In this document: positions 9,277 through 54,554 of the stretch, piece by piece
How positions within the stretch are numbered: position 1 is the first letter of the stretch
Layout of the letters: each line of letters begins with the position of its first letter
Assembly: GCA_030649135.1 (NCBI GenBank)
Contig: JAUSGI010000006.1
Span: 32,001-96,000, forward strand
Source: a bacterium
GTDB lineage: Bacteria > Patescibacteriota > Minisyncoccia > Phycocordibacterales > Zambryskibacteraceae
Length of the DNA stretch: 64,000 bases
Reading direction: 5' to 3'
Translations under genes and position numbers: made by a program
The notes under the pieces: model-generated
Told to the model about the DNA's origin: nothing
What the model saw: the letters and a program-made list of their open reading frames with translations, nothing else
Databases searched by the model: none

Positions 9277-10497
9277 ATGTTATATACCAAGCCCATTACT
9301 GAAATTACTTATGTCGATGTCATTGACTTCTGCAAACAGTCGTTAAAAGAGAATATAAACCTGGACTACAAGCTGGATGTCGATACTGGCATAGCCAAGA
9401 CCATAGCGGCAATGGCTAATACTTGGGGTGGGCTGATTGTGGTCGGTGTTGAAGACGAGGATAGTAAGCCCAAGCTACCTGTCGAGGGTATTCCATATCG
9501 CGAGCACATTGAGGAGCAGATAAACAACATTATTCTAGGTAATATCACTCCGCCAACCTTTCCAGAAGTTAAGGTGTGCCTGTCTGAAAATAAAGAGAAA
9601 ATGTTTGTGGTAATCAGGATTCCACAAAGCAATCTCACGCCTCATGCTATTAGGGGCAATACCAGAGTCTACATCAGAACCAATACTAGCAATGAACCTG
9701 AAGAAGAAATAACTATAGAAAAGTTAGGGTGGTTAGTTGATAAGCGAAAAAAGTCACTCGACCTGAAAGAACAACTACATCAGGAAGCTGATAGACGGTT
9801 TGAAAAACTATGCAGGATACAAGGAATAAAAAATTTTAGACATAACGATGTTAGTCTTATGACGTCTCCTCTATATCCATTCGAAATTCTAACTAAAAAG
9901 GAGCAACTTATCAGGGAGATACCTGAAAGGATGCGGACTGAAGCCTGGGGTAGATACTTCCCAAAGACTTTACATAGAACAAGCTACGAAGCTATTAATG
10001 GCGGTAGTTATGCCTTTATCTCGAATGGTCAGTCAGGATACTTTCTATATGAGGAATTTAATCATTACGGTCTTTTTTATCATAGGGAAGATTGGTGTAA
10101 AAGTGATAAAGATGAAGAAACTGGAGAAATCAAGCACACAGGTTTTTTGCATAGCTATTTATCCGAGATAGACCTAATGATTGAATCCGCAAGTAAATTC
10201 TATTCTGCAGTAGGATACTGGGGTCTTGTCGAAATAAAAGTTATTGCCAGAGAGTTAGAAGAAGTCAATTTTAGGGATTTACCAGCTCCAAAAGGTTTCT
10301 ATAAATTCGATAAACTTGAGAAGAGACCCATTGATAATAATCTTGAATTTACCAAAGAAGTTTCGGTCAGAGAACTGGTAGAAAAAAGGGTGGCACTAGT
10401 AACATATTTGATGCTCGATTTGAGCTGGGCACTTGGCTTCACTCATATCGATGAAGAAGGTATAGGAAGACTTCTAGAGGAGCAGGGTCGTCTCTAG
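9277..10497 (+). CDS. Schlafen/AlbA_2 (divergent AAA, putative DNA-binding) domain protein, defence-associated
   Basis: N-terminal motif IAKTIAAMANTWGGLIVVGVEDED matches the AlbA_2/Schlafen core. C-terminal ~200 aa unassigned. Adjacent and convergent to the Type III R-M system. Confidence 0.7.
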   Translation: MLYTKPITEITYVDVIDFCKQSLKENINLDYKLDVDTGIAKTIAAMANTWGGLIVVGVEDEDSKPKLPVEGIPYREHIEEQINNIILGNITPPTFPEVKVCLSENKEKMFVVIRIPQSNLTPHAIRGNTRVYIRTNTSNEPEEEITIEKLGWLVDKRKKSLDLKEQLHQEADRRFEKLCRIQGIKNFRHNDVSLMTSPLYPFEILTKKEQLIREIPERMRTEAWGRYFPKTLHRTSYEAINGGSYAFISNGQSGYFLYEEFNHYGLFYHREDWCKSDKDEETGEIKHTGFLHSYLSEIDLMIESASKFYSAVGYWGLVEIKVIARELEEVNFRDLPAPKGFYKFDKLEKRPIDNNLEFTKEVSVRELVEKRVALVTYLMLDLSWALGFTHIDEEGIGRLLEEQGRL

Positions 10498-28501: not shown

Positions 28502-30043
28502 CTAAACTCTTTCTTCAAGATACTTGAGGATAGCATACATCGCATAAGTATCTAAGCCGCAGTATTCTCGAAGATCATCCATTATTTTCTCTTTCTTATC
28601 CGAGTCTTTCCCGCGTAAAACAGTTTGCATCCAGACACGTTGTGCTTGCCCGCCTTCGGAAATATTGAGCTTTTTATAACTGAATTCCGGGAGAAGCGCC
28701 GGCAAGACCGACTTTATTGAAGCCTTGCCGAAGAAGTCTTTATCTACAAACCACCCTTTGGAAAATGGAATCATCAGGTCAACCATCCTTTCATTGACTC
28801 CCGCCAGAAACTTTTCATATTTGGGATGCATTTTCCCCATCTCTGTGTTTCTAGCTTTTTCAAAAGTCATGTACCAGGAAATGACAGAGCCTTTGGCATC
28901 CCGCCTGCTAGCGCCTGAGCTTAGCGATGGCGGGCAGGCAAAATCATTTTGGAGGTGTTCCAGGAGGGCCGGCACCGGGTCGGAATTATCCGTGTGCAAA
29001 TACTCCTTCTGTCTCAGTTCCCCACCCGGTTTATCCAGAATATGCAGAGAATATTGGAAAGGCACTTGCTGATATGGCCGATAACCATCAAAGGCCGGTA
29101 TCACGCTTGCAAGAGTCTCATAATCCAAAAAATATAATGGGTACTCTAAATCGTTGAGAAAGGCTTTAATCTCTTCCTTGTTTATATGTTGTGTCCCGGA
29201 CTTCATGGCTTCGACTTGCCGCAATTGTTTTTCCGTAAGAGGCCCATCAAGCGGAATGTCATCGAGAAGTTCTATGCCATTGTCTTCGAGCCACGCAATA
29301 GTCTTTACATCGGGACCGGCGAGTTTATAGATGCTGTACTTAGGAAACTCTCCTTTTATAGCTTGTACAATACTAAGCCACTCTTCTATCACGCCTGCAT
29401 TCTGTTTGAGATGGCGCGGGGAGAGGTCAGGCATCTTCTTTTCTTTCAATATCTCAAATGCTTTTTGGATATTCTCTTTTGTTTCCTCAATTATTTCTCG
29501 TACTTCCTCGGTCACATCTGTTTTTTCAGAAATCAGAGCGGGATCAATCTCGCCCTGTCTTACATATTTATTATTGACATGCAGGACAAACATCTTGCGC
29601 ACAGAAAGTCCCGCGCTCTCTAAAACGATAGTCTGGAACGCAAGGTCTGGGATATGTTCAGGTTTGACGCTGGTGGAAGATTTTATTTCGTAAAGGTCAT
29701 AAGTTTTATCACCTGTTTTTTCCAAGACATCGAAAATAGAAGTAATATTATCGGCCTCTACCCTACCTTGTAGTATTACTTCCGTTCCCTTCTCAATTTC
29801 CTTAGCTGTAAGCTCCGGCAGAGCATAATACTTAGTGCCGCTGAATTCATTATCATTCTTGTAACCAAGCTTAGCCGCTTTAGGGAAAAGTTTTTCGGCA
29901 TACTGTTCGAATAGAGACCCTTCGTCGAAAAGTGCCTGTAGACCCTCGTCCGGCACCGGCAACTTTTCTTTATCGAATTTCTTAAGCCACAACCACGCCG
30001 GGTGCTTCAGAAACATCATGAATTCTGATTTGGAGATAACCAT
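28502..30043 (-). CDS. DUF2779-like protein: N-terminal PD-(D/E)xK nuclease-like plus C-terminal RNase H-like/exonuclease-like domain
   Basis: 513 aa. Motifs D..YEIKSST and LYFLDYETL. Confidence 0.55.
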   Translation of the reverse strand: MVISKSEFMMFLKHPAWLWLKKFDKEKLPVPDEGLQALFDEGSLFEQYAEKLFPKAAKLGYKNDNEFSGTKYYALPELTAKEIEKGTEVILQGRVEADNITSIFDVLEKTGDKTYDLYEIKSSTSVKPEHIPDLAFQTIVLESAGLSVRKMFVLHVNNKYVRQGEIDPALISEKTDVTEEVREIIEETKENIQKAFEILKEKKMPDLSPRHLKQNAGVIEEWLSIVQAIKGEFPKYSIYKLAGPDVKTIAWLEDNGIELLDDIPLDGPLTEKQLRQVEAMKSGTQHINKEEIKAFLNDLEYPLYFLDYETLASVIPAFDGYRPYQQVPFQYSLHILDKPGGELRQKEYLHTDNSDPVPALLEHLQNDFACPPSLSSGASRRDAKGSVISWYMTFEKARNTEMGKMHPKYEKFLAGVNERMVDLMIPFSKGWFVDKDFFGKASIKSVLPALLPEFSYKKLNISEGGQAQRVWMQTVLRGKDSDKKEKIMDDLREYCGLDTYAMYAILKYLEERV

Positions 30044-48233: not shown

Positions 48234-48309
48234 TGGAGCCGGAGGCGAGATTCGAACTCGCGACTTACCCCTTACGAAGGGGTTACTCTACCAACTGAGT
48301 TACTCCGGC
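48234..48309 (-). tRNA. tRNA-Thr (anticodon CGU), CCA encoded
   Basis: Manual cloverleaf: acceptor GCCGGAG/CUCCGGC. D arm ACUC-AGUUGGUA-GAGU. Anticodon loop UUCGUAA. T arm GCGAG-UUCGAAU-CUCGC. Discriminator U plus CCA. Confidence 0.85.
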
Positions 48310-48396: not shown

Positions 48397-48471
48397 TGGA
48401 GCCAGAGGGGAGAATCGGACTCCCGACCTCTTTCTTACCATGAAAGCGTTCTACCACTGAACTACTCTGGC
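48397..48471 (-). tRNA. tRNA-Thr (anticodon GGU), CCA encoded; T-loop UCCGAUU (C55)
   Basis: Manual cloverleaf: acceptor GCCAGAG/CUCUGGC. Anticodon loop AUGGUAA. T arm GGGAG-UCCGAUU-CUCCC. Confidence 0.8.
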
Positions 48472-49559: not shown

Positions 49560-49790
49560 CTATCTCCTTTCTATCACAATTCCAATACATGCGTTTCCCC
49601 CACCAGCATCAGGGCAAGAGCGGCCATCGGGTGTTTTGCAAGAATTATCGATTTTAATTCCTAAACAGTCACACTCCCTGTGGATATACCCCCACGCGTA
49701 ATTCGTATAATCGCAAGATTTGGGATAAATAACATAACCAATAAGGACAAGCCCTGTTATTATTAAAATAATTTGAATAGTTCTTTTCAT
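49560..49790 (-). CDS. Small secreted Cys-rich protein (76 aa)
   Basis: Signal peptide/TM IQIILIITGLVLIGYVIY, then 7 Cys. Confidence 0.4.
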   Translation of the reverse strand: MKRTIQIILIITGLVLIGYVIYPKSCDYTNYAWGYIHRECDCLGIKIDNSCKTPDGRSCPDAGGGNACIGIVIERR

Positions 49791-49792
49791 AG

Positions 49793-49866
49793 CGCGGTCA
49801 ACCGGACTTGAACCGGCAACCTCTCCCGTGACAGGGGAGTGCTCTAACCAGTTGAGCTATGACCGC
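49793..49866 (-). tRNA. tRNA-Asp (anticodon GUC), no encoded CCA
   Basis: Acceptor GCGGUCA/UGACCGC. D arm GCUC-AACUGGUUA-GAGC. Anticodon loop CUGUCAC. T arm GCCGG-UUCAAGU-CCGGU. Discriminator G. Confidence 0.85.
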
Positions 49867-49908
49867 AATGGATTACAAATTAGCAGATTTTCGCCACTAA
49901 TTCAATTG

Positions 49909-49979
49909 TGCCGGTGAATGGAATCGGACCATTGTTTGAGGCTTATGAGTCCTCTGTTCTGCCATTGAACTACACCGGC
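49909..49979 (-). tRNA. tRNA with CAU anticodon (Met or Ile2); short, T-loop UCCGAUU (C55)
   Basis: Acceptor GCCGGUG/CACCGGC (G1-C72 paired). D arm GUUC-AAUGGCA-GAAC. Anticodon stem has an A31-G39 mismatch. Loop CUCAUAA. 4-nt variable loop. No CCA. Confidence 0.65.
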
Positions 49980-50044
49980 AATAGCCTTGATACTATATTA
50001 TGAAATCTTGATTTTCTCAATAAAAAGCGTATGATGGGCGGGAC

Positions 50045-50115
50045 AGCGGGTTGGAGGAGTAGTACCTCGACAGGCTCATAACCTGTAGGCATCCGTGCAA
50101 ATCGGGTACCCGCAA
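50045..50115 (+). tRNA. Non-canonical tRNA-like gene with CAU anticodon (A1-A72 mismatch, D-loop lacks GG, T-loop UGCAAAU), divergent from the previous tRNA
   Basis: Manual fold: acceptor AGCGGGU/ACCCGCA (6 bp plus terminal A-A). D arm GAGG-AGUAGUA-CCUC. Anticodon arm ACAGG-CUCAUAA-CCUGU. Variable AGGC. T arm AUCCG-UGCAAAU-CGGGU. Confidence 0.45.
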
Positions 50116-50117
50116 CA

Positions 50118-50795
50118 CTAAATTACCTGGAATTCTTTAAAGACCTTCTCGAAGAGAGCAACAACTCGTTTGGTTTCGCGTTCGCTTAATTGAAAGTCTC
50201 CCCCAGAATGTGCGATGGCATTTCTGACTTTGTGCGCCTCCCAAGCATCGTCAATGGTCAGAAATTCATTTTTATCGGCCGACTTGAGCATATCGCCTAC
50301 AGATTCCCCCAGGTAGCCAATGGTGCGTAAAAGCGATTCAAGCATCACATCTGCCTCGATGACAGCCAGACGCCAGTCCGAAGCATTATTGGAATTTGCA
50401 TACTTCAGAACTTGCTCCCATTTCTCGTTTTTCGGCTCTTTGACGGCATCTCCGTCCGAGACAGAGGTTTCGGGAAGAGGATTATAAATTTTATTTTCTT
50501 CAATATTGATAGCTCGCAGTTTCCAAGAATTATAAATAATACCAGCGATGGCAAGCAAACTCACAATAGCCGCCACAATCTTCCAAATTGGCCAGATATA
50601 TCGGAGGAAGTAATCCACTATACGGGCCCAGATATCATTAATATTGCCCGCCCCCAAACTTTCGAGATAGTCAACTAGGGCGGCAACTATCGCTGCGAGG
50701 AGGAGAAGTCCCGCCAATAGAAAGATGATGCGTTCAACAGTTTTTCTGTCGCTGTTATCTCCCGTGACTTTTATTGGTTTTTTCTCTTCTGCCAT
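50118..50795 (-). CDS. Membrane-anchored HEPN-family (DUF4145-like) protein, candidate RNase toxin or abortive-infection effector
   Basis: 225 aa. Two N-terminal TM helices. C-terminal helical domain with the Rx4H motif (HKVRNAIAHSG) characteristic of HEPN/DUF4145. Stop lies 3 nt from the tRNA-like gene. Confidence 0.55.
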   Translation of the reverse strand: MAEEKKPIKVTGDNSDRKTVERIIFLLAGLLLLAAIVAALVDYLESLGAGNINDIWARIVDYFLRYIWPIWKIVAAIVSLLAIAGIIYNSWKLRAINIEENKIYNPLPETSVSDGDAVKEPKNEKWEQVLKYANSNNASDWRLAVIEADVMLESLLRTIGYLGESVGDMLKSADKNEFLTIDDAWEAHKVRNAIAHSGGDFQLSERETKRVVALFEKVFKEFQVI

Positions 50796-50804
50796 AGCTA
50801 TATC

Positions 50805-52241
50805 TTATTCCCCCAGAAATTCTTTACCAGCGACAAATAAATTATCTTCTCGTCCCAGACCGGCAGTCAGTTCGATACCAAGCGGTAGGGCATGGTCAAA
50901 ACCGGACGGAATAGACATGGACGGCAGTCCGGCAATGTTGGCTGGTACGGTAAAAATGTCGGCTAAGTACATGGCGAGCGGGTCCGCTGTTTTTTCTCCG
51001 AGTTTAAATGCCGGAGTGGGCGTGGTGGGAGTTAAAATGAAATCAATTTCTTCAAATGCACGGTTCAATTCCGCCGTAATCAATGCCTTCATCTTTAGAG
51101 CGCTTCCGTAGTATTCATCATAATAACCGGAGGAAAGCACATAAGTGCCCAGGATAATTCTTCTGCGCACTTCCCTGCCAAAACCTTCGCCACGGGTTTG
51201 GAAATAATCTTCTATCACATCCTTACCATCTTTATGAAAACCGTATTTCACACCATCAAAGCGTGCCAGGTTGGAAGAAGCCTCAGCCGGCATAATGATG
51301 TAGTACGTCGCCAGAGCATATTTAATATGTGACAGTTCAACATCTTTAATTTCATATCCCAACGATTTAAATTTGTCCAACGCTTCTTTAAAATTATTCC
51401 TGATGCTCTCATCTATGCCTTCGCCGTCTACAAACGCCTGTGGAATCCCTATGACCCGGGAGAACTTCTTCCCAGAAGCATACGTTTCTTCTGTTATTGT
51501 CGTACTATCAAGAGCATCCCTACCCTTCAATACATCATATAGGATTTCAGCGTCACCAACTGTCTTTGTAAATGGACCAATTTGATCAAGTGAGGAGGCG
51601 AGTGCAATAAGACCAGAACGCGATACCCTGCCATAAGTGGGTTTGAGACCGACAACACCACAGAAAGCTGCCGGCTGCCTGATTGAACCGCCGGTATCGG
51701 AACCGAGAGCGGCCAGCGCAAGGTTAGCCGCCACAGCCGCCGCCGAGCCTCCGGAAGAACCGCCGGGCACCAGAGATAAGTCATGAGGATTTTTGGTTAC
51801 GCCATATGCCGAACTTTCGGTGGAACTCCCCATAGCAAACTCATCCATATTGGTGCGCCCCAGGATAATAGCGCCGGCGTCTTTAAGTTTTTTGACTGCA
51901 GTGCTGTCATAAGGAGACACAAAGCCTTCGAGAATTTTGGAGCCGGCAGTAGCACGCTTGCCATCCATGAGCATATTATCTTTAATCGCGACGGGAATAC
52001 CGAGGAGCGGAAGGTTTTCCCCATTGGCTATTTTTTTGTCGGCTAGCTCCGCTTGTTCTGAAGCGTCCCCGAAGACTTCAAGAAAAGCGTGAATGCCTGC
52101 CCGTCCCTGTCCGGAGGGCGGGTCACCATCTTTCTCTCTGATAGCATCTAAATAAGTCTGGGTCAAGTCGTGAGCTGAAAACTCTTTTTTCTCTAAAGCA
52201 TTCCGCGCGCTTTTTATGGAGAGTTTGGAAATATTAGGCAT
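50805..52241 (-). CDS. gatA: Glutamyl-tRNA(Gln) amidotransferase subunit A
   Basis: Amidase signature GGSSGGSAAAVAA. 478 aa. Confidence 0.9.
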   Translation of the reverse strand: MPNISKLSIKSARNALEKKEFSAHDLTQTYLDAIREKDGDPPSGQGRAGIHAFLEVFGDASEQAELADKKIANGENLPLLGIPVAIKDNMLMDGKRATAGSKILEGFVSPYDSTAVKKLKDAGAIILGRTNMDEFAMGSSTESSAYGVTKNPHDLSLVPGGSSGGSAAAVAANLALAALGSDTGGSIRQPAAFCGVVGLKPTYGRVSRSGLIALASSLDQIGPFTKTVGDAEILYDVLKGRDALDSTTITEETYASGKKFSRVIGIPQAFVDGEGIDESIRNNFKEALDKFKSLGYEIKDVELSHIKYALATYYIIMPAEASSNLARFDGVKYGFHKDGKDVIEDYFQTRGEGFGREVRRRIILGTYVLSSGYYDEYYGSALKMKALITAELNRAFEEIDFILTPTTPTPAFKLGEKTADPLAMYLADIFTVPANIAGLPSMSIPSGFDHALPLGIELTAGLGREDNLFVAGKEFLGE

Positions 52242-52525
52242 CAGAGAATTTTCTTTACCTTAATATGGCCACCTTCCCTCGCCGGAGCTTGCGCTAGAAT
52301 CTTCTCGGTATAGAGACCGGACTGGTGGGGCTCTCCGTCCTCCCTAAAAACATTAGACAAACCGACATTCTCCAGTTTGTTGGTTTGTTGGTCACCTGTC
52401 GCAGCCTTGACCTCGCCGACATAATCGAGGATAGCGCTAAACTCACGAGTCAGGTTCTCTGCCTCCTCGTCTTTTAACTCAATCCTCGCTAGTTTGGCTA
52501 GACTTAGTACTTTTTCCTTATCCAT
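52241..52525 (-). CDS. gatC: Glutamyl-tRNA(Gln) amidotransferase subunit C
   Basis: 94 aa. Segment VLSLAKLARIELKDEE. Overlaps the gatA start. Confidence 0.85.
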   Translation of the reverse strand: MDKEKVLSLAKLARIELKDEEAENLTREFSAILDYVGEVKAATGDQQTNKLENVGLSNVFREDGEPHQSGLYTEKILAQAPAREGGHIKVKKIL

Positions 52526-52529
52526 GTCT

Positions 52530-54554
<2,025 letters not shown>

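Follow-up and report, generated by a model that had tools for sequence, protein, structure and literature searches.

The 64,000-nucleotide stretch of DNA analysed here (the window) carries, on its minus strand, a gene for a 225-aa protein with a predicted C-terminal HEPN domain, which lies between a tRNA cluster and the genes gatA, gatC and ligA. The features of the locus are listed below in order of position, with the source of each assignment in brackets.

48237..48309, minus strand: tRNA-Thr(CGU), normal T-loop, U55 (ARAGORN; RF00005, 69.8 bits)
48400..48471, minus strand: tRNA-Thr(GGU), T-loop UCCGAUU, C55 (ARAGORN; RF00005, 63.6 bits)
49793..49866, minus strand: tRNA-Asp(GUC), normal T-loop, U55 (ARAGORN; RF00005, 69.8 bits)
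49909..49979, minus strand: tRNA(CAU), elongator Met or Ile2, here tRNA B (ARAGORN; RF00005, 64.3 bits)
49992..50020, minus strand: promoter-like TTGAGA-17-TATAGT for tRNA B, divergent from the tRNA A site (consensus scan)
50008..50035, plus strand: promoter-like TTGATT-16-TATGAT for the predicted initiator tRNA (consensus scan)
50045..50115, plus strand: predicted initiator tRNA(CAU), here tRNA A (ARAGORN; Rfam RF00005, 49.1 bits, E=7e-9)
50118..50795, minus strand: HEPN gene, 225 aa, two TM helices and a predicted C-terminal HEPN domain (ORF list)
50121..50432, minus strand: predicted HEPN-fold domain, predicted to be cytoplasmic, residues ~122-225
50208..50225, minus strand: R191-N-A-I-A-H196 (Rx4H) motif (read directly from the sequence)
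50532..50606, minus strand: TM helix 2, residues ~64-88 (alignment of 30 homologues, hydropathy)
50661..50729, minus strand: TM helix 1, residues ~23-45 (hydropathy, charge count, AF2 helix 15-46)
50805..52241, minus strand: gatA, amidase family (ORF; PF01425 in the syntenic genes of relatives)
52241..52525, minus strand: gatC (ORF; PF02686 in the syntenic genes of relatives)
52530..54548, minus strand: ligA, NAD-dependent DNA ligase (ORF; Pfam ligase domains in the syntenic genes)

The spacing is 4 nt between ligA and gatC, -1 nt between gatC and gatA (a 1-nt overlap) and 9 nt between gatA and the HEPN gene; this spacing suggests that the HEPN gene closes a ligA-gatC-gatA operon and is expressed with it. 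At its other end the stop codon (TAG, 50118-50120) faces A73 of tRNA A (50115) on the opposite strand. An earlier note on this DNA had correctly placed the two genes side by side; the exact gap is 2 nt, not the 3 nt given there. The HEPN gene is present in a single copy within the window and its G + C content (0.448) is close to that of the window (0.455). A protein search with the 225-aa sequence returned one NCBI protein that was 100% identical and 267 homologues, with an identity of 58-80% across the best 120 matches. The only contig found to encode the window's own protein is 7.3 kb long and ends at the tRNA cluster.

The membrane anchoring proposed for the protein is real; it contains two hydrophobic segments at residues ~23-45 and 64-88. 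In an alignment of 30 homologues the start methionine is invariant, as is W68-P69-x-W71 in TM helix 2. The N-terminus preceding TM helix 1 is a K/R-rich stretch. The counts of K+R/D+E are 6/5 before TM helix 1, 1/2 in the loop and 3/2 after TM helix 2, a pattern that is weakly compatible with an N-in/C-in topology. Longer homologues carry SH3_3-like inserts between the two TM helices, which suggests that the loop points to the extracellular side.

Following the AF2 model and the alignments, the C-terminal domain is predicted to have the HEPN fold, with an invariant R-N-x3-H motif. R191, N192 and H196 are invariant in the 30 homologues; a second alignment, of 30 far more distant ones, conserves R, N and H of the motif to at least 90%. 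An Rx4H motif may arise by chance in a single protein; its invariance across homologues speaks against chance here. The conserved acidic residue in helix 2 that is expected of the HEPN superfamily is also found: E147 and D149 are invariant in the 30 homologues, with the aspartate at least 90% conserved in the 30 distant ones, and E153-x3-R157 is present in addition. In the AF2 model (mean pLDDT 79), helix 181-200, the third core helix of the domain, carries the motif at its C-terminal end, ahead of the loop to helix 205-221. The definition of HEPN domains puts Rx4-6H at the C-terminal end of that helix, the same place as R191-H196 (PMC3710099).

Database comparisons gave fainter signals. The window protein had no match in Pfam at E<=1 to DUF4145 or to any other HEPN family, and direct scans of the 225-aa protein against Pfam, NCBIfam and PADLOC yielded weak matches to transmembrane regions. 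A weak Cas13e-like match (E=0.076) covered the motif region. Taken alone, the C-terminal domain scored only 13.4 bits (E=0.099) against HEPN_Swt1 (PF18731), for which the gathering threshold is 27.5 bits. Among 30 diverse C-terminal domains of relatives, 13 matched HEPN_Swt1 (best E=4.9e-4), six RiboL-PSP, four DUF4145 (PF13643; best E=4.5e-4), four Cthe2314 and three pEK499_p136, all below the curated cut-offs. The sub-threshold matches to HEPN_Swt1 point to the HEPN clan, not to membership of that family. Searches of PDB sequences with profiles from both 30-sequence alignments (close and distant) retrieved no HEPN entries. Foldseek of the AF2 model against the PDB gave no significant match (best E ~0.2); its highest-probability real matches were 1wty and 2q00, which we take to be HEPN-type proteins, and the structural support is limited by the ease with which four-helix bundles match each other. 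Because the window protein itself has no Pfam match, the HEPN assignment rests on structure prediction and family-level signals that are weak. Of the earlier description, an Rx4H HEPN domain in a DUF4145-like context, the HEPN-like C-terminal domain holds and the DUF4145 match does not.

The family, one of Patescibacteria, is large, comprising 2681 clusters at 50% identity, of which 716 have E<=1e-30, and has no Pfam or NCBIfam model. A scan of viral contigs found no relatives, and the PADLOC scan of the window protein gave no significant match, the best being to a candidate family (E=0.026). The HEPN gene is a vertically inherited core gene of Patescibacteria of the Parcubacteria/Paceibacteria type, which are ultra-small bacteria. 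In nearly all relatives gatA lies directly upstream on the same strand. The block of gatA, HEPN gene and initiator tRNA was found in Zambryski-, Adler-, Kaiser-, Vogel-, Sung- and Taylorbacteria and others, and persists down to 30-40% protein identity; the distance from the 3' end of the HEPN gene to the tRNA is 4-250 nt and has been kept through repeated inversions. No convincing inverted repeats flanking the tRNA were found that might drive its inversion. The region just past the tRNA cluster is an insertion hot spot in relatives, with genes for ParE, Fic or recombinases.

Starting from the protein, an initiator tRNA was present within 400 nt downstream, in either orientation, in 42 of the approximately 60 loci with room downstream, and several loci keep gatA and have no tRNA within 4 kb. 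Starting from the tRNA, a homologue was present within 1.5 kb in 64 of approximately 86 loci, which were labelled as Patescibacteria or unlabelled and were chosen solely by tRNA pattern. The HEPN gene is thus tied more strongly to gatA (near universal) than to the tRNA (~65-70%).

In each of the four arrangements that were read, covering both orientations, a promoter-like site stands ahead of the initiator tRNA; in L001 and L005, where the arrangement is co-directional, the equivalent site is again upstream of it. The consensus scan found 10 sites in the region against 5.9 expected from shuffled sequences, so that a single site is weak evidence. As the initiator tRNA has a promoter-like site of its own in both orientations, the idea that it adjoins the HEPN gene because the two are co-transcribed was rejected. 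Since gatA is near universal and the tRNA is present in about two thirds of the loci, in either orientation and with its own promoter-like site, the adjacency of HEPN gene and tRNA looks like conserved synteny, that is, inherited gene order. Adjacency at 30-50% protein identity nevertheless exceeds typical random synteny, and there could be a function behind it.

All five tRNAs of the cluster are real. The two CAU genes point away from each other, with 65 bp between them. For tRNA A, which ARAGORN calls tRNA-Met(cat), the covariance score of 49.1 bits is above the RF00005 gathering score of 29. The cmscan alignment bore out the unusual features noted earlier for this gene, namely A1xA72, a D-loop (AGUAGUA) without GG and the T-loop UGCAAAU, which gives the combination A18/G55; the gene further has A11:U24 and does not encode CCA. 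Its cloverleaf is supported by covariation, with compensatory changes among relatives in 12 of the 20 pairs. The absence of a Watson-Crick pair at 1:72, as expected of an initiator, is common in its orthologues, of which 88 unique ones included 60 with AxA, 16 with CxA and nine with U1-A72. A11:U24 is A-U in 36/36 aligned orthologues. The anticodon stem has G:C pairs at 30:40 and 31:39 and A29:U41, against the three consecutive G:C pairs usually taken as a criterion, and this AGG/CCU form is found in 84 of the 88 orthologues.

The closest comparison is the metY/metZ type, with tRNA A 77% identical to E. coli metY. The two share the CAU anticodon, the unpaired 1:72, G2:C71, C3:G70, A11:U24, G30:C40, G31:C39 and A73, and the T-loop of metY is identical save for position 55. 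The metY/metZ type differs in having C1xA72 instead of A1xA72, a third G:C pair in place of A29:U41, G18 where tRNA A has A18 in a 7-nt D-loop, and U55 instead of G55; unlike it, tRNA A has a 4-nt variable loop and no encoded CCA. On these sequence features, the plus-strand gene is the functional initiator tRNA of the lineage. It had been left open before whether it was an initiator, a decoy or a pseudogene: the identity to metY and the compensatory changes favour the first and speak against the other two. In annotation, this 'tRNA-like' gene should be named initiator tRNA.

The features noted earlier for tRNA B (G1-C72, an A31.G39 mismatch and the T-loop UCCGAUU, with C55) and C55 in tRNA-Thr(GGU) were also seen in the cmscan alignment. 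tRNA B is 58% identical to each of E. coli metT and ileY, and relatives have C55 or U55 at its position. C55 was present in 9/20 Thr-GGU genes of related loci. U55 is thus replaced in at least three tRNAs of the window, as had been proposed: by G55 in tRNA A and by C55 in tRNA B and Thr-GGU.

Among 298 unique tRNAs, 177 were G18/U55, 19 G18/C55 and 99 A18/G55, the initiator sample being enriched for G55 by the search pattern; three had no assignable base 18. G55 always co-occurred with A18, and the combinations A18/U55 and G18/G55 were both absent from the 298. The replacement of U55 is a lineage trait, as had been suggested, and not a coincidence. U55 has not been lost in general, as it persists in many tRNAs of the same loci. 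truB was found neither by a Pfam scan of 20 window ORFs nor when E. coli TruB was compared by tblastn with the window and with ~1.5 Mb from related loci; these sequences are a small local fraction of the genomes, and the result has no bearing on whether truB is present in them. A literature search on initiator tRNAs of the CPR, A18/G55, TruB in the CPR and HEPN in Patescibacteria found nothing relevant. Since homologues of the HEPN protein adjoin both G55 and U55 initiators, the idea that the protein is linked specifically to the G55 form was rejected.

The strict rule of A18/G55 versus G18/U55 (or C55) amounts to a natural experiment on a highly conserved tertiary contact of tRNA. It also makes it worth asking, on concrete grounds, whether these organisms can do without TruB. 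If the tRNA elbow is indeed rewired, Psi55 (TruB) and Gm18 would be dispensable for A18/G55 or G18/C55 tRNAs, and co-adapted elbow readers (the ribosomal L1 stalk, uL5, RNase P) may follow. For annotation, G55 or C55 is no ground to discard tRNA predictions in Patescibacteria.

The explanation that we favour overall, with a confidence a little above even, is that the gene encodes a membrane-tethered, cytoplasm-facing HEPN endoribonuclease that is housekeeping or regulated by a stimulus, and is not a tRNA-targeting toxin. The protein would cross the inner membrane twice, with its N-terminus in, a short loop out and its C-terminus in. Its cytoplasmic HEPN domain, with the predicted catalytic signature intact (the acidic residue in helix 2 and R-N-x3-H), would by analogy with other HEPN enzymes be an endoribonuclease that needs no metal, leaves 2',3'-cyclic phosphate ends and probably works as a dimer. 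Its target would be cytoplasmic RNA close to the inner membrane face, which it may cut constitutively, in RNA processing or turnover. Alternatively, cleavage may be triggered by a signal that the membrane-embedded or extracellular part senses, like eukaryotic Ire1. The tRNA cluster would be a long-standing neighbour by synteny, with promoter-like sites of its own, and not necessarily a target.

We know of no bacterial HEPN RNase with a housekeeping function, which gives conflict-related roles the higher prior. The earlier note had proposed an abortive-infection toxin of the anticodon-nuclease kind with a part in tRNA-targeting immunity. Such an effector would be held inactive at the membrane and cleave tRNA on phage attack. 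The intact catalytic motif, the weak Cas13e-like match over it and the insertion hot spot beyond the tRNA cluster in relatives fit this reading, as does the predominance of toxins and defence effectors among the prokaryotic HEPN RNases characterised so far (PMC3710099). However, the synteny with housekeeping genes is kept across hundreds of species, the identity of 58-80% across the best 120 matches is unlike that of fast-evolving toxins, and no MNT antitoxin, NTPase or restriction-modification partner was seen adjoining the gene. A single copy, native G + C content, a place in an operon, a large family and no viral or defence matches beyond the PADLOC hit to a candidate family leave the toxin or immunity reading unsupported, and we regard it as very improbable. 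In another reading, the HEPN domain is non-catalytic and binds a nucleotide, RNA or a protein partner, acting as a membrane scaffold or as the output of a sensor and cutting no RNA, like MtlR, sacsin and the substrate-binding domains of nucleotidyltransferases. At least one relative (L068) has lost the R and H of the motif. But non-catalytic HEPN domains usually lose Rx4-6H (PMC3710099), whereas even very divergent members of this family retain R, N and H at 90% or more, along with the acidic residue of helix 2; we consider a non-catalytic domain decidedly unlikely.

A housekeeping role linked to tRNA is rather doubtful, although the block of gatA, HEPN gene and initiator tRNA speaks for it, both by its persistence at low protein identity and by the closeness of the tRNA to the 3' end of the HEPN gene despite repeated inversions. 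GatCA acts on tRNA-bound substrates, and tRNA-Asp lies within the same cluster. The protein would take part in processing or quality control of the initiator or of tRNAs handled by GatCAB, or would tether such a complex to the membrane. Against this, the initiator tRNA carries a promoter-like site of its own and changes orientation between loci, about one third of the protein-selected loci have gatA and no initiator tRNA nearby, and the protein, which has no tRNA-binding domain, adjoins U55 as well as G55 initiators and so is not tied to the unusual form; adjacency is weak evidence in compact genomes. Two further proposals, both of which could be new, are likewise speculative and on balance unlikely. 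In the first, the protein is the first housekeeping bacterial HEPN endoribonuclease, a membrane-tethered enzyme found throughout the Parcubacteria and functionally coupled to the GatCA/initiator-tRNA block (in processing or quality control of tRNA or other stable RNA). In the second, the otherwise near-universal G18-Psi55 contact of the elbow is rewired to A18-G55 or G18-C55 in several tRNA species, including most of the sampled initiators.

The gene seems to belong to the core set of a major branch of the Candidate Phyla Radiation, and for this conserved 'unknown' the HEPN fold gives a biochemical hypothesis that can be tested. If the protein is an active housekeeping RNase, bacterial HEPN enzymes are not confined to conflict systems.

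Compared with known systems, the protein resembles PrrC and RloC in its HEPN-type RNase motif and, conceptually, in its connection to tRNA. These have an N-terminal ABC-type NTPase domain and linked restriction-modification genes, both absent here: the N-terminal 105 residues of the 225-aa protein hold two TM helices and no NTPase domain was found in them. HEPN-MNT toxins (SO_3166, PDB 5yep; 7ae2; 8xdj) and Abi HEPN effectors have a cognate partner next to them (an MNT nucleotidyltransferase or another defence gene) and are mobile and patchily distributed; the window protein has no adjacent MNT antitoxin, is membrane-anchored and vertically inherited in a housekeeping operon, and its neighbours are gatA and tRNA genes in conserved synteny.

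To our knowledge, none of the bacterial membrane-associated HEPN groups has been characterised experimentally. Membrane-associated bacterial HEPN domains, including a DUF4145-like group with a 'WP' signature in the TM helix, were described by Anantharaman et al. (2013, PMC3710099), who list fusions of DUF4145 to 'TM and SH3', propose RNA cleavage at the inner membrane face, possibly stimulus-dependent, and draw the analogy to Ire1, RNase L and C6orf70. With the latter (KEN-domain proteins in the case of Ire1 and RNase L) the window protein would have in common a membrane-tethered, cytoplasm-facing HEPN domain, an activity expected to depend on dimerisation and possibly a sensing part across the membrane. 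Ire1 and RNase L are eukaryotic and have a kinase domain and a circularly permuted HEPN fold, features absent from the window protein, which is bacterial and has a tiny external loop; this is a working analogy, with homology only at the superfamily level. The DUF4145-like group is closer, as it too combines a membrane anchor at the N-terminus with a HEPN domain at the C-terminus that is predicted to be cytoplasmic and keeps Rx4-6H intact. The invariant W68-P69 in TM helix 2 corresponds to its WP signature, which in the present family is confined to a Zambryskibacteria-like subfamily, and its TM/SH3 fusions recall the SH3_3-like inserts of the long members. That group has one TM segment where the present family has two, and the present family stays below the Pfam threshold for DUF4145, with weak matches in 4/30 relatives. 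Unlike the DUF4145-like group, the family of the window protein is a core operon gene of Patescibacteria.

The gene for the 225-aa protein, a two-pass membrane protein with a C-terminal HEPN-like domain, occurs once in the window, with a G + C content of 0.448 against 0.455 for the window as a whole. Its product is identical to a protein on record from a metagenome-assembled genome. The window has ordinary chromosomal content: type IV pilus genes, ligA, gatC, gatA, a CsoR-like repressor gene, trmD, dnaG, rpoD, bipA, hisS and a 763-aa ORF recognised by eye as a putative P-type ATPase. The spacing between ligA, gatC, gatA and the 225-aa gene is 4, -1 and 9 nt, respectively, so that the four look like one operon. 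Elsewhere in the window lie a Schlafen AlbA_2-domain protein (406 aa, 9277-10497, plus strand) and a DUF2779 protein (513 aa, 28502-30043, minus strand). tRNA genes were called with ARAGORN and the Rfam tRNA model (cmscan), which agreed on five genes.

Features of the locus
48237-48309, minus strand, tRNA-Thr-CGU (ARAGORN and Rfam)
48400-48471, minus strand, tRNA-Thr-GGU (ARAGORN and Rfam)
49793-49866, minus strand, tRNA-Asp (ARAGORN and Rfam)
49909-49979, minus strand, tRNA(CAU) B (ARAGORN and Rfam, 64.3 bits)
50045-50115, plus strand, tRNA(CAU) A (ARAGORN and Rfam, 49.1 bits, E = 7e-9)
50118-50795, minus strand, ORF of the 225-aa protein (ORF listing)
50208-50225, minus strand, R191-N-A-I-A-H196 motif (read from the sequence)

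The cmscan alignments matched every tRNA detail folded by hand in the earlier note, and tRNA A, there only tRNA-like, was called as a gene. tRNA B has G1-C72, an A31.G39 mismatch and the T-loop UCCGAUU, which is also that of tRNA-Thr-GGU; tRNA A has A1xA72, the D-loop AGUAGUA and the T-loop UGCAAAU; tRNA-Asp and tRNA-Thr-CGU have ordinary UUC T-loops. A 76-aa ORF (49560-49790, minus strand) begins 2 nt after tRNA-Asp; its product has eight cysteines and is hydrophobic near its N-terminus, and family scans of it gave no match.

Judged from its sequence, tRNA A is an initiator tRNA, one of the options entertained in the earlier note. It shares 77% identity with E. coli metY and just 45-49% with metT or ileY, and it has an unpaired 1:72, G2:C71, C3:G70 and A11:U24. 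Across 36 orthologues the cloverleaf is preserved, 12 of its 20 pairs having changed in a compensatory way, and A11:U24 is invariant. It is a lineage variant of the bacterial initiator: where the E. coli type has C1, a third G:C pair and G18/U55, tRNA A has A1, A29:U41 and A18/G55, and unlike that type it has no encoded CCA. Position 1:72 was AxA in 60, CxA in 16 and U1-A72 in 9 of 88 orthologues. tRNA B is 58% identical to each of E. coli elongator Met and Ile2. A further initiator variant lies beside the HEPN gene in four related loci (L144, L149, L160 and L191), with the T-loop AGCGUUA and the D-loop AAAAGUA; its A54 and U58 are apparently the reverse of the usual U54-A58 pair.

In the window tRNA A is convergent with the 225-aa ORF, its A73 lying 2 nt from the TAG stop. 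Since it has neither an encoded CCA nor a terminator-like site after it (50116-50135), transcription of its 3' trailer must enter the HEPN gene around the stop codon, in antisense. The initiator tRNA is likewise convergent in related locus L003, and in L001 and L005 the two genes are co-directional. A promoter-like site of its own lies about 10 nt upstream in each of the four arrangements read and moves with the tRNA, the two spanning about 115 bp (window 49980-50117; L001 5679-5800; L003 5673-5811; L005). From the two orientations and this promoter-like site, the initiator tRNA looks like a separate, repeatedly inverted transcription unit. Repeated inversion was seen among close relatives, L128-L140 also being involved; no convincing inverted repeats flanking the invertible tRNA were found. 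Past the tRNA(CAU)-tRNA-Asp cluster the sequence is variable, with a serine recombinase and a gene of LAGLIDADG type in L001 (6042-8338) and with ParE, Fic and HTH genes in L005 (6316-7340), which suggests a hot spot for integration at the tRNA cluster.

The named homologues among 267 first-pass relatives were all from Patescibacteria (e.g. Zambryskibacteria, Parcubacteria, Minisyncoccia). With clustering at 50% identity, an exhaustive profile search gave 2681 clusters; 716 had E<=1e-30, and in nearly every one of the best 150 of the 2681 the match spanned the C-terminal end. The order in relatives found by protein was pseudopilins, ligA, gatC, gatA, HEPN gene, tRNA(CAU) A, tRNA(CAU) B, tRNA-Asp, a variable stretch and tRNA-Thr. 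The linkage was measured in two independent samples. The tRNA-selected sample (anticodon arm plus G55 T-loop pattern, one genome per species) held at least 120 loci, and about 86 of the 120 matches listed were labelled Patescibacteria or were unlabelled "bacterium" records. Among the matches listed, a HEPN homologue (25-66% identity) lay within 1.5 kb of the tRNA in 64 of these roughly 86, at most 1.47 kb away and usually with 4-250 nt between the tRNA and the 3' end of the gene, and gatA was directly upstream of it on the same strand. In the protein-selected sample of 80 metagenome loci, gatA was upstream in almost all loci with room. In 42 loci an initiator-type tRNA followed the HEPN gene within 400 nt (26 with G55, 16 with U55), and no tRNA was present in 14 loci that extend 150 nt or more downstream; five of the 14 (L165, L172, L184, L197, L206) keep gatA upstream and are tRNA-free for 4 kb downstream. 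Over both samples the HEPN gene is thus linked to gatA nearly universally and to the initiator tRNA about two thirds of the time, and the HEPN protein shows no preference for the unusual form of the tRNA.

Direct family scans of the 225-aa protein gave nothing significant and PDB sequence searches for its family were empty; the main evidence for a HEPN fold is structure prediction. An AlphaFold2 model built on 30 homologues (mean pLDDT 79) has predicted helices at 15-46, 52-104, 124-133, 138-159, 166-172, 181-200 and 205-221. Structures listed with it were TTHA0636 (1wwp), the HEPN toxins 5yep_B, 8xdj and 7ae2, sacsin HEPN, TT1696 and Csm6, with LsoA, RnlA, AbiA and HepS lower down; Foldseek with the model gave no significant match. 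A survey of the HEPN superfamily (PMC3710099) assigns Rx4-6H to the end of core helix 3, R typically being followed by N, D or H. The R-N-x3-H of the 225-aa protein lies at that helix end, just ahead of the loop to the last helix, and helix 2 carries the expected acidic residue, which does not vary (E147, D149), so the motif and conserved residues fit the published definition, and the catalytic-type motif is intact in the predicted fold. Scanned one by one against Pfam, 30 diverse C-terminal domains of the family gave sub-threshold matches to HEPN_Swt1 (13), RiboL-PSP (6), DUF4145 (4), Cthe2314 (4) and pEK499_p136 (3). On predicted structure, motif position and these weak matches we accept membership of the HEPN superfamily, as proposed earlier; the DUF4145 part of that proposal, like membership of any other curated family, was not accepted, all Pfam matches being sub-threshold. 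In L068, a 184-aa homologue that still adjoins a tRNA lacks the R as well as the H of the motif (AAHQVCQDIIRD) and may be an inactivated member.

The protein is anchored in the membrane. Its K+R/D+E counts (6/5 ahead of TM1, 1/2 in the inter-helix loop, 3/2 past TM2) are weakly compatible with an N-in/C-in topology. In all relatives the C-terminal domain is preceded by one or two hydrophobic segments near the N-terminus; in those of 300-700 aa an insert with weak matches to bacterial SH3 (SH3_3) separates the two segments. SH3_3-type domains are typical of extracytoplasmic, cell-wall-binding proteins. From charges, segment layout and inserts, the HEPN domain is placed in the cytoplasm. Repeated SH3_3-like segments between two transmembrane helices were seen in L013, L067 and the homologues P0170, P0200 and P0205 (387-473 aa), where they may serve outside the cell for binding or sensing.

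On balance we lean towards a membrane-anchored cytoplasmic HEPN endoribonuclease. It would be metal-independent, would probably work as a dimer and would cut RNA at the membrane. It could do so as a housekeeping enzyme, or its activity could be under the control of a signal that comes from the membrane or the external part. A housekeeping role tied to the neighbouring tRNA, which has its own promoter-like site and is present in about two thirds of cases, we consider unlikely. That the HEPN domain is non-catalytic is quite doubtful; the L068 homologue may be so, and the motif of the 225-aa protein is intact. The toxin or tRNA-targeting immunity role proposed in the earlier note is not supported and is improbable: no relative was found in 2.9 million viral contigs, and the gene is a core, not a mobile, one in strikingly conserved synteny.

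The earlier suspicion that non-U55 is a lineage trait proved right and was sharpened by positions 18 and 55 in 298 unique tRNA sequences from loci carrying the HEPN protein, the G55 initiators from the genome scan having been picked for G55 but not for A18.

Nucleotides at positions 18 and 55 (298 unique tRNAs)
G18 / U55: 177
G18 / C55: 19
A18 / G55: 99
A18 / U55: 0
G18 / G55: 0
Position 18 not assignable: 3

In these Parcubacteria loci the elbow pair 18:55 shows strict covariation, and certain tRNAs of the lineage tolerate a base other than U at position 55. A18/G55 is carried by initiators and also by Met-B, Phe and Thr-GGU tRNAs; C55, which swaps with U55 between relatives, by Met-B, Thr-GGU and one Thr-CGU; U55 is kept in Asp and nearly all Thr-CGU tRNAs. 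In L011, L022 and L026 (non-Patescibacteria) G55 occurs with an ordinary GG D-loop. Sporadic initiator-like tRNAs with an AG-type D-loop (A18) and G55 outside Patescibacteria (L014, L029, L051, L084, L107), including in cultured Proteobacteria, mean that the variant is not exclusive to the Candidate Phyla Radiation; that of Euryhalocaulis caribicus JL2009 (L084, 4123-4197) has A1xA72 as well. L007 (Verrucomicrobiaceae), L008 (Acidobacteriota), L010 (Hyphomicrobiaceae) and L020 (Nostoc) each pack 10-31 tRNA genes densely into 8 kb; in these and in L058 (also Nostoc) a pattern-matched tRNA-Met-like sequence carries a G55 T-loop, the stretch in L008 not being called as a gene by ARAGORN. A search of the available literature library found no paper describing the A18/G55 pattern, which does not in itself prove novelty.

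The strict A18/G55 rule and the possible housekeeping HEPN RNase are the most interesting leftovers. To our knowledge, the architecture class of membrane HEPN proteins has never been characterised. The 225-aa protein represents a new, uncurated family inside the known HEPN superfamily, with an architecture class predicted in 2013, when a DUF4145-like membrane HEPN group with a "WP" transmembrane helix was described and proposed to cut RNA at the inner membrane face, possibly on external stimuli (PMC3710099). The 225-aa protein shares the WP with that group, its TM2 carrying an invariant W68-P69.
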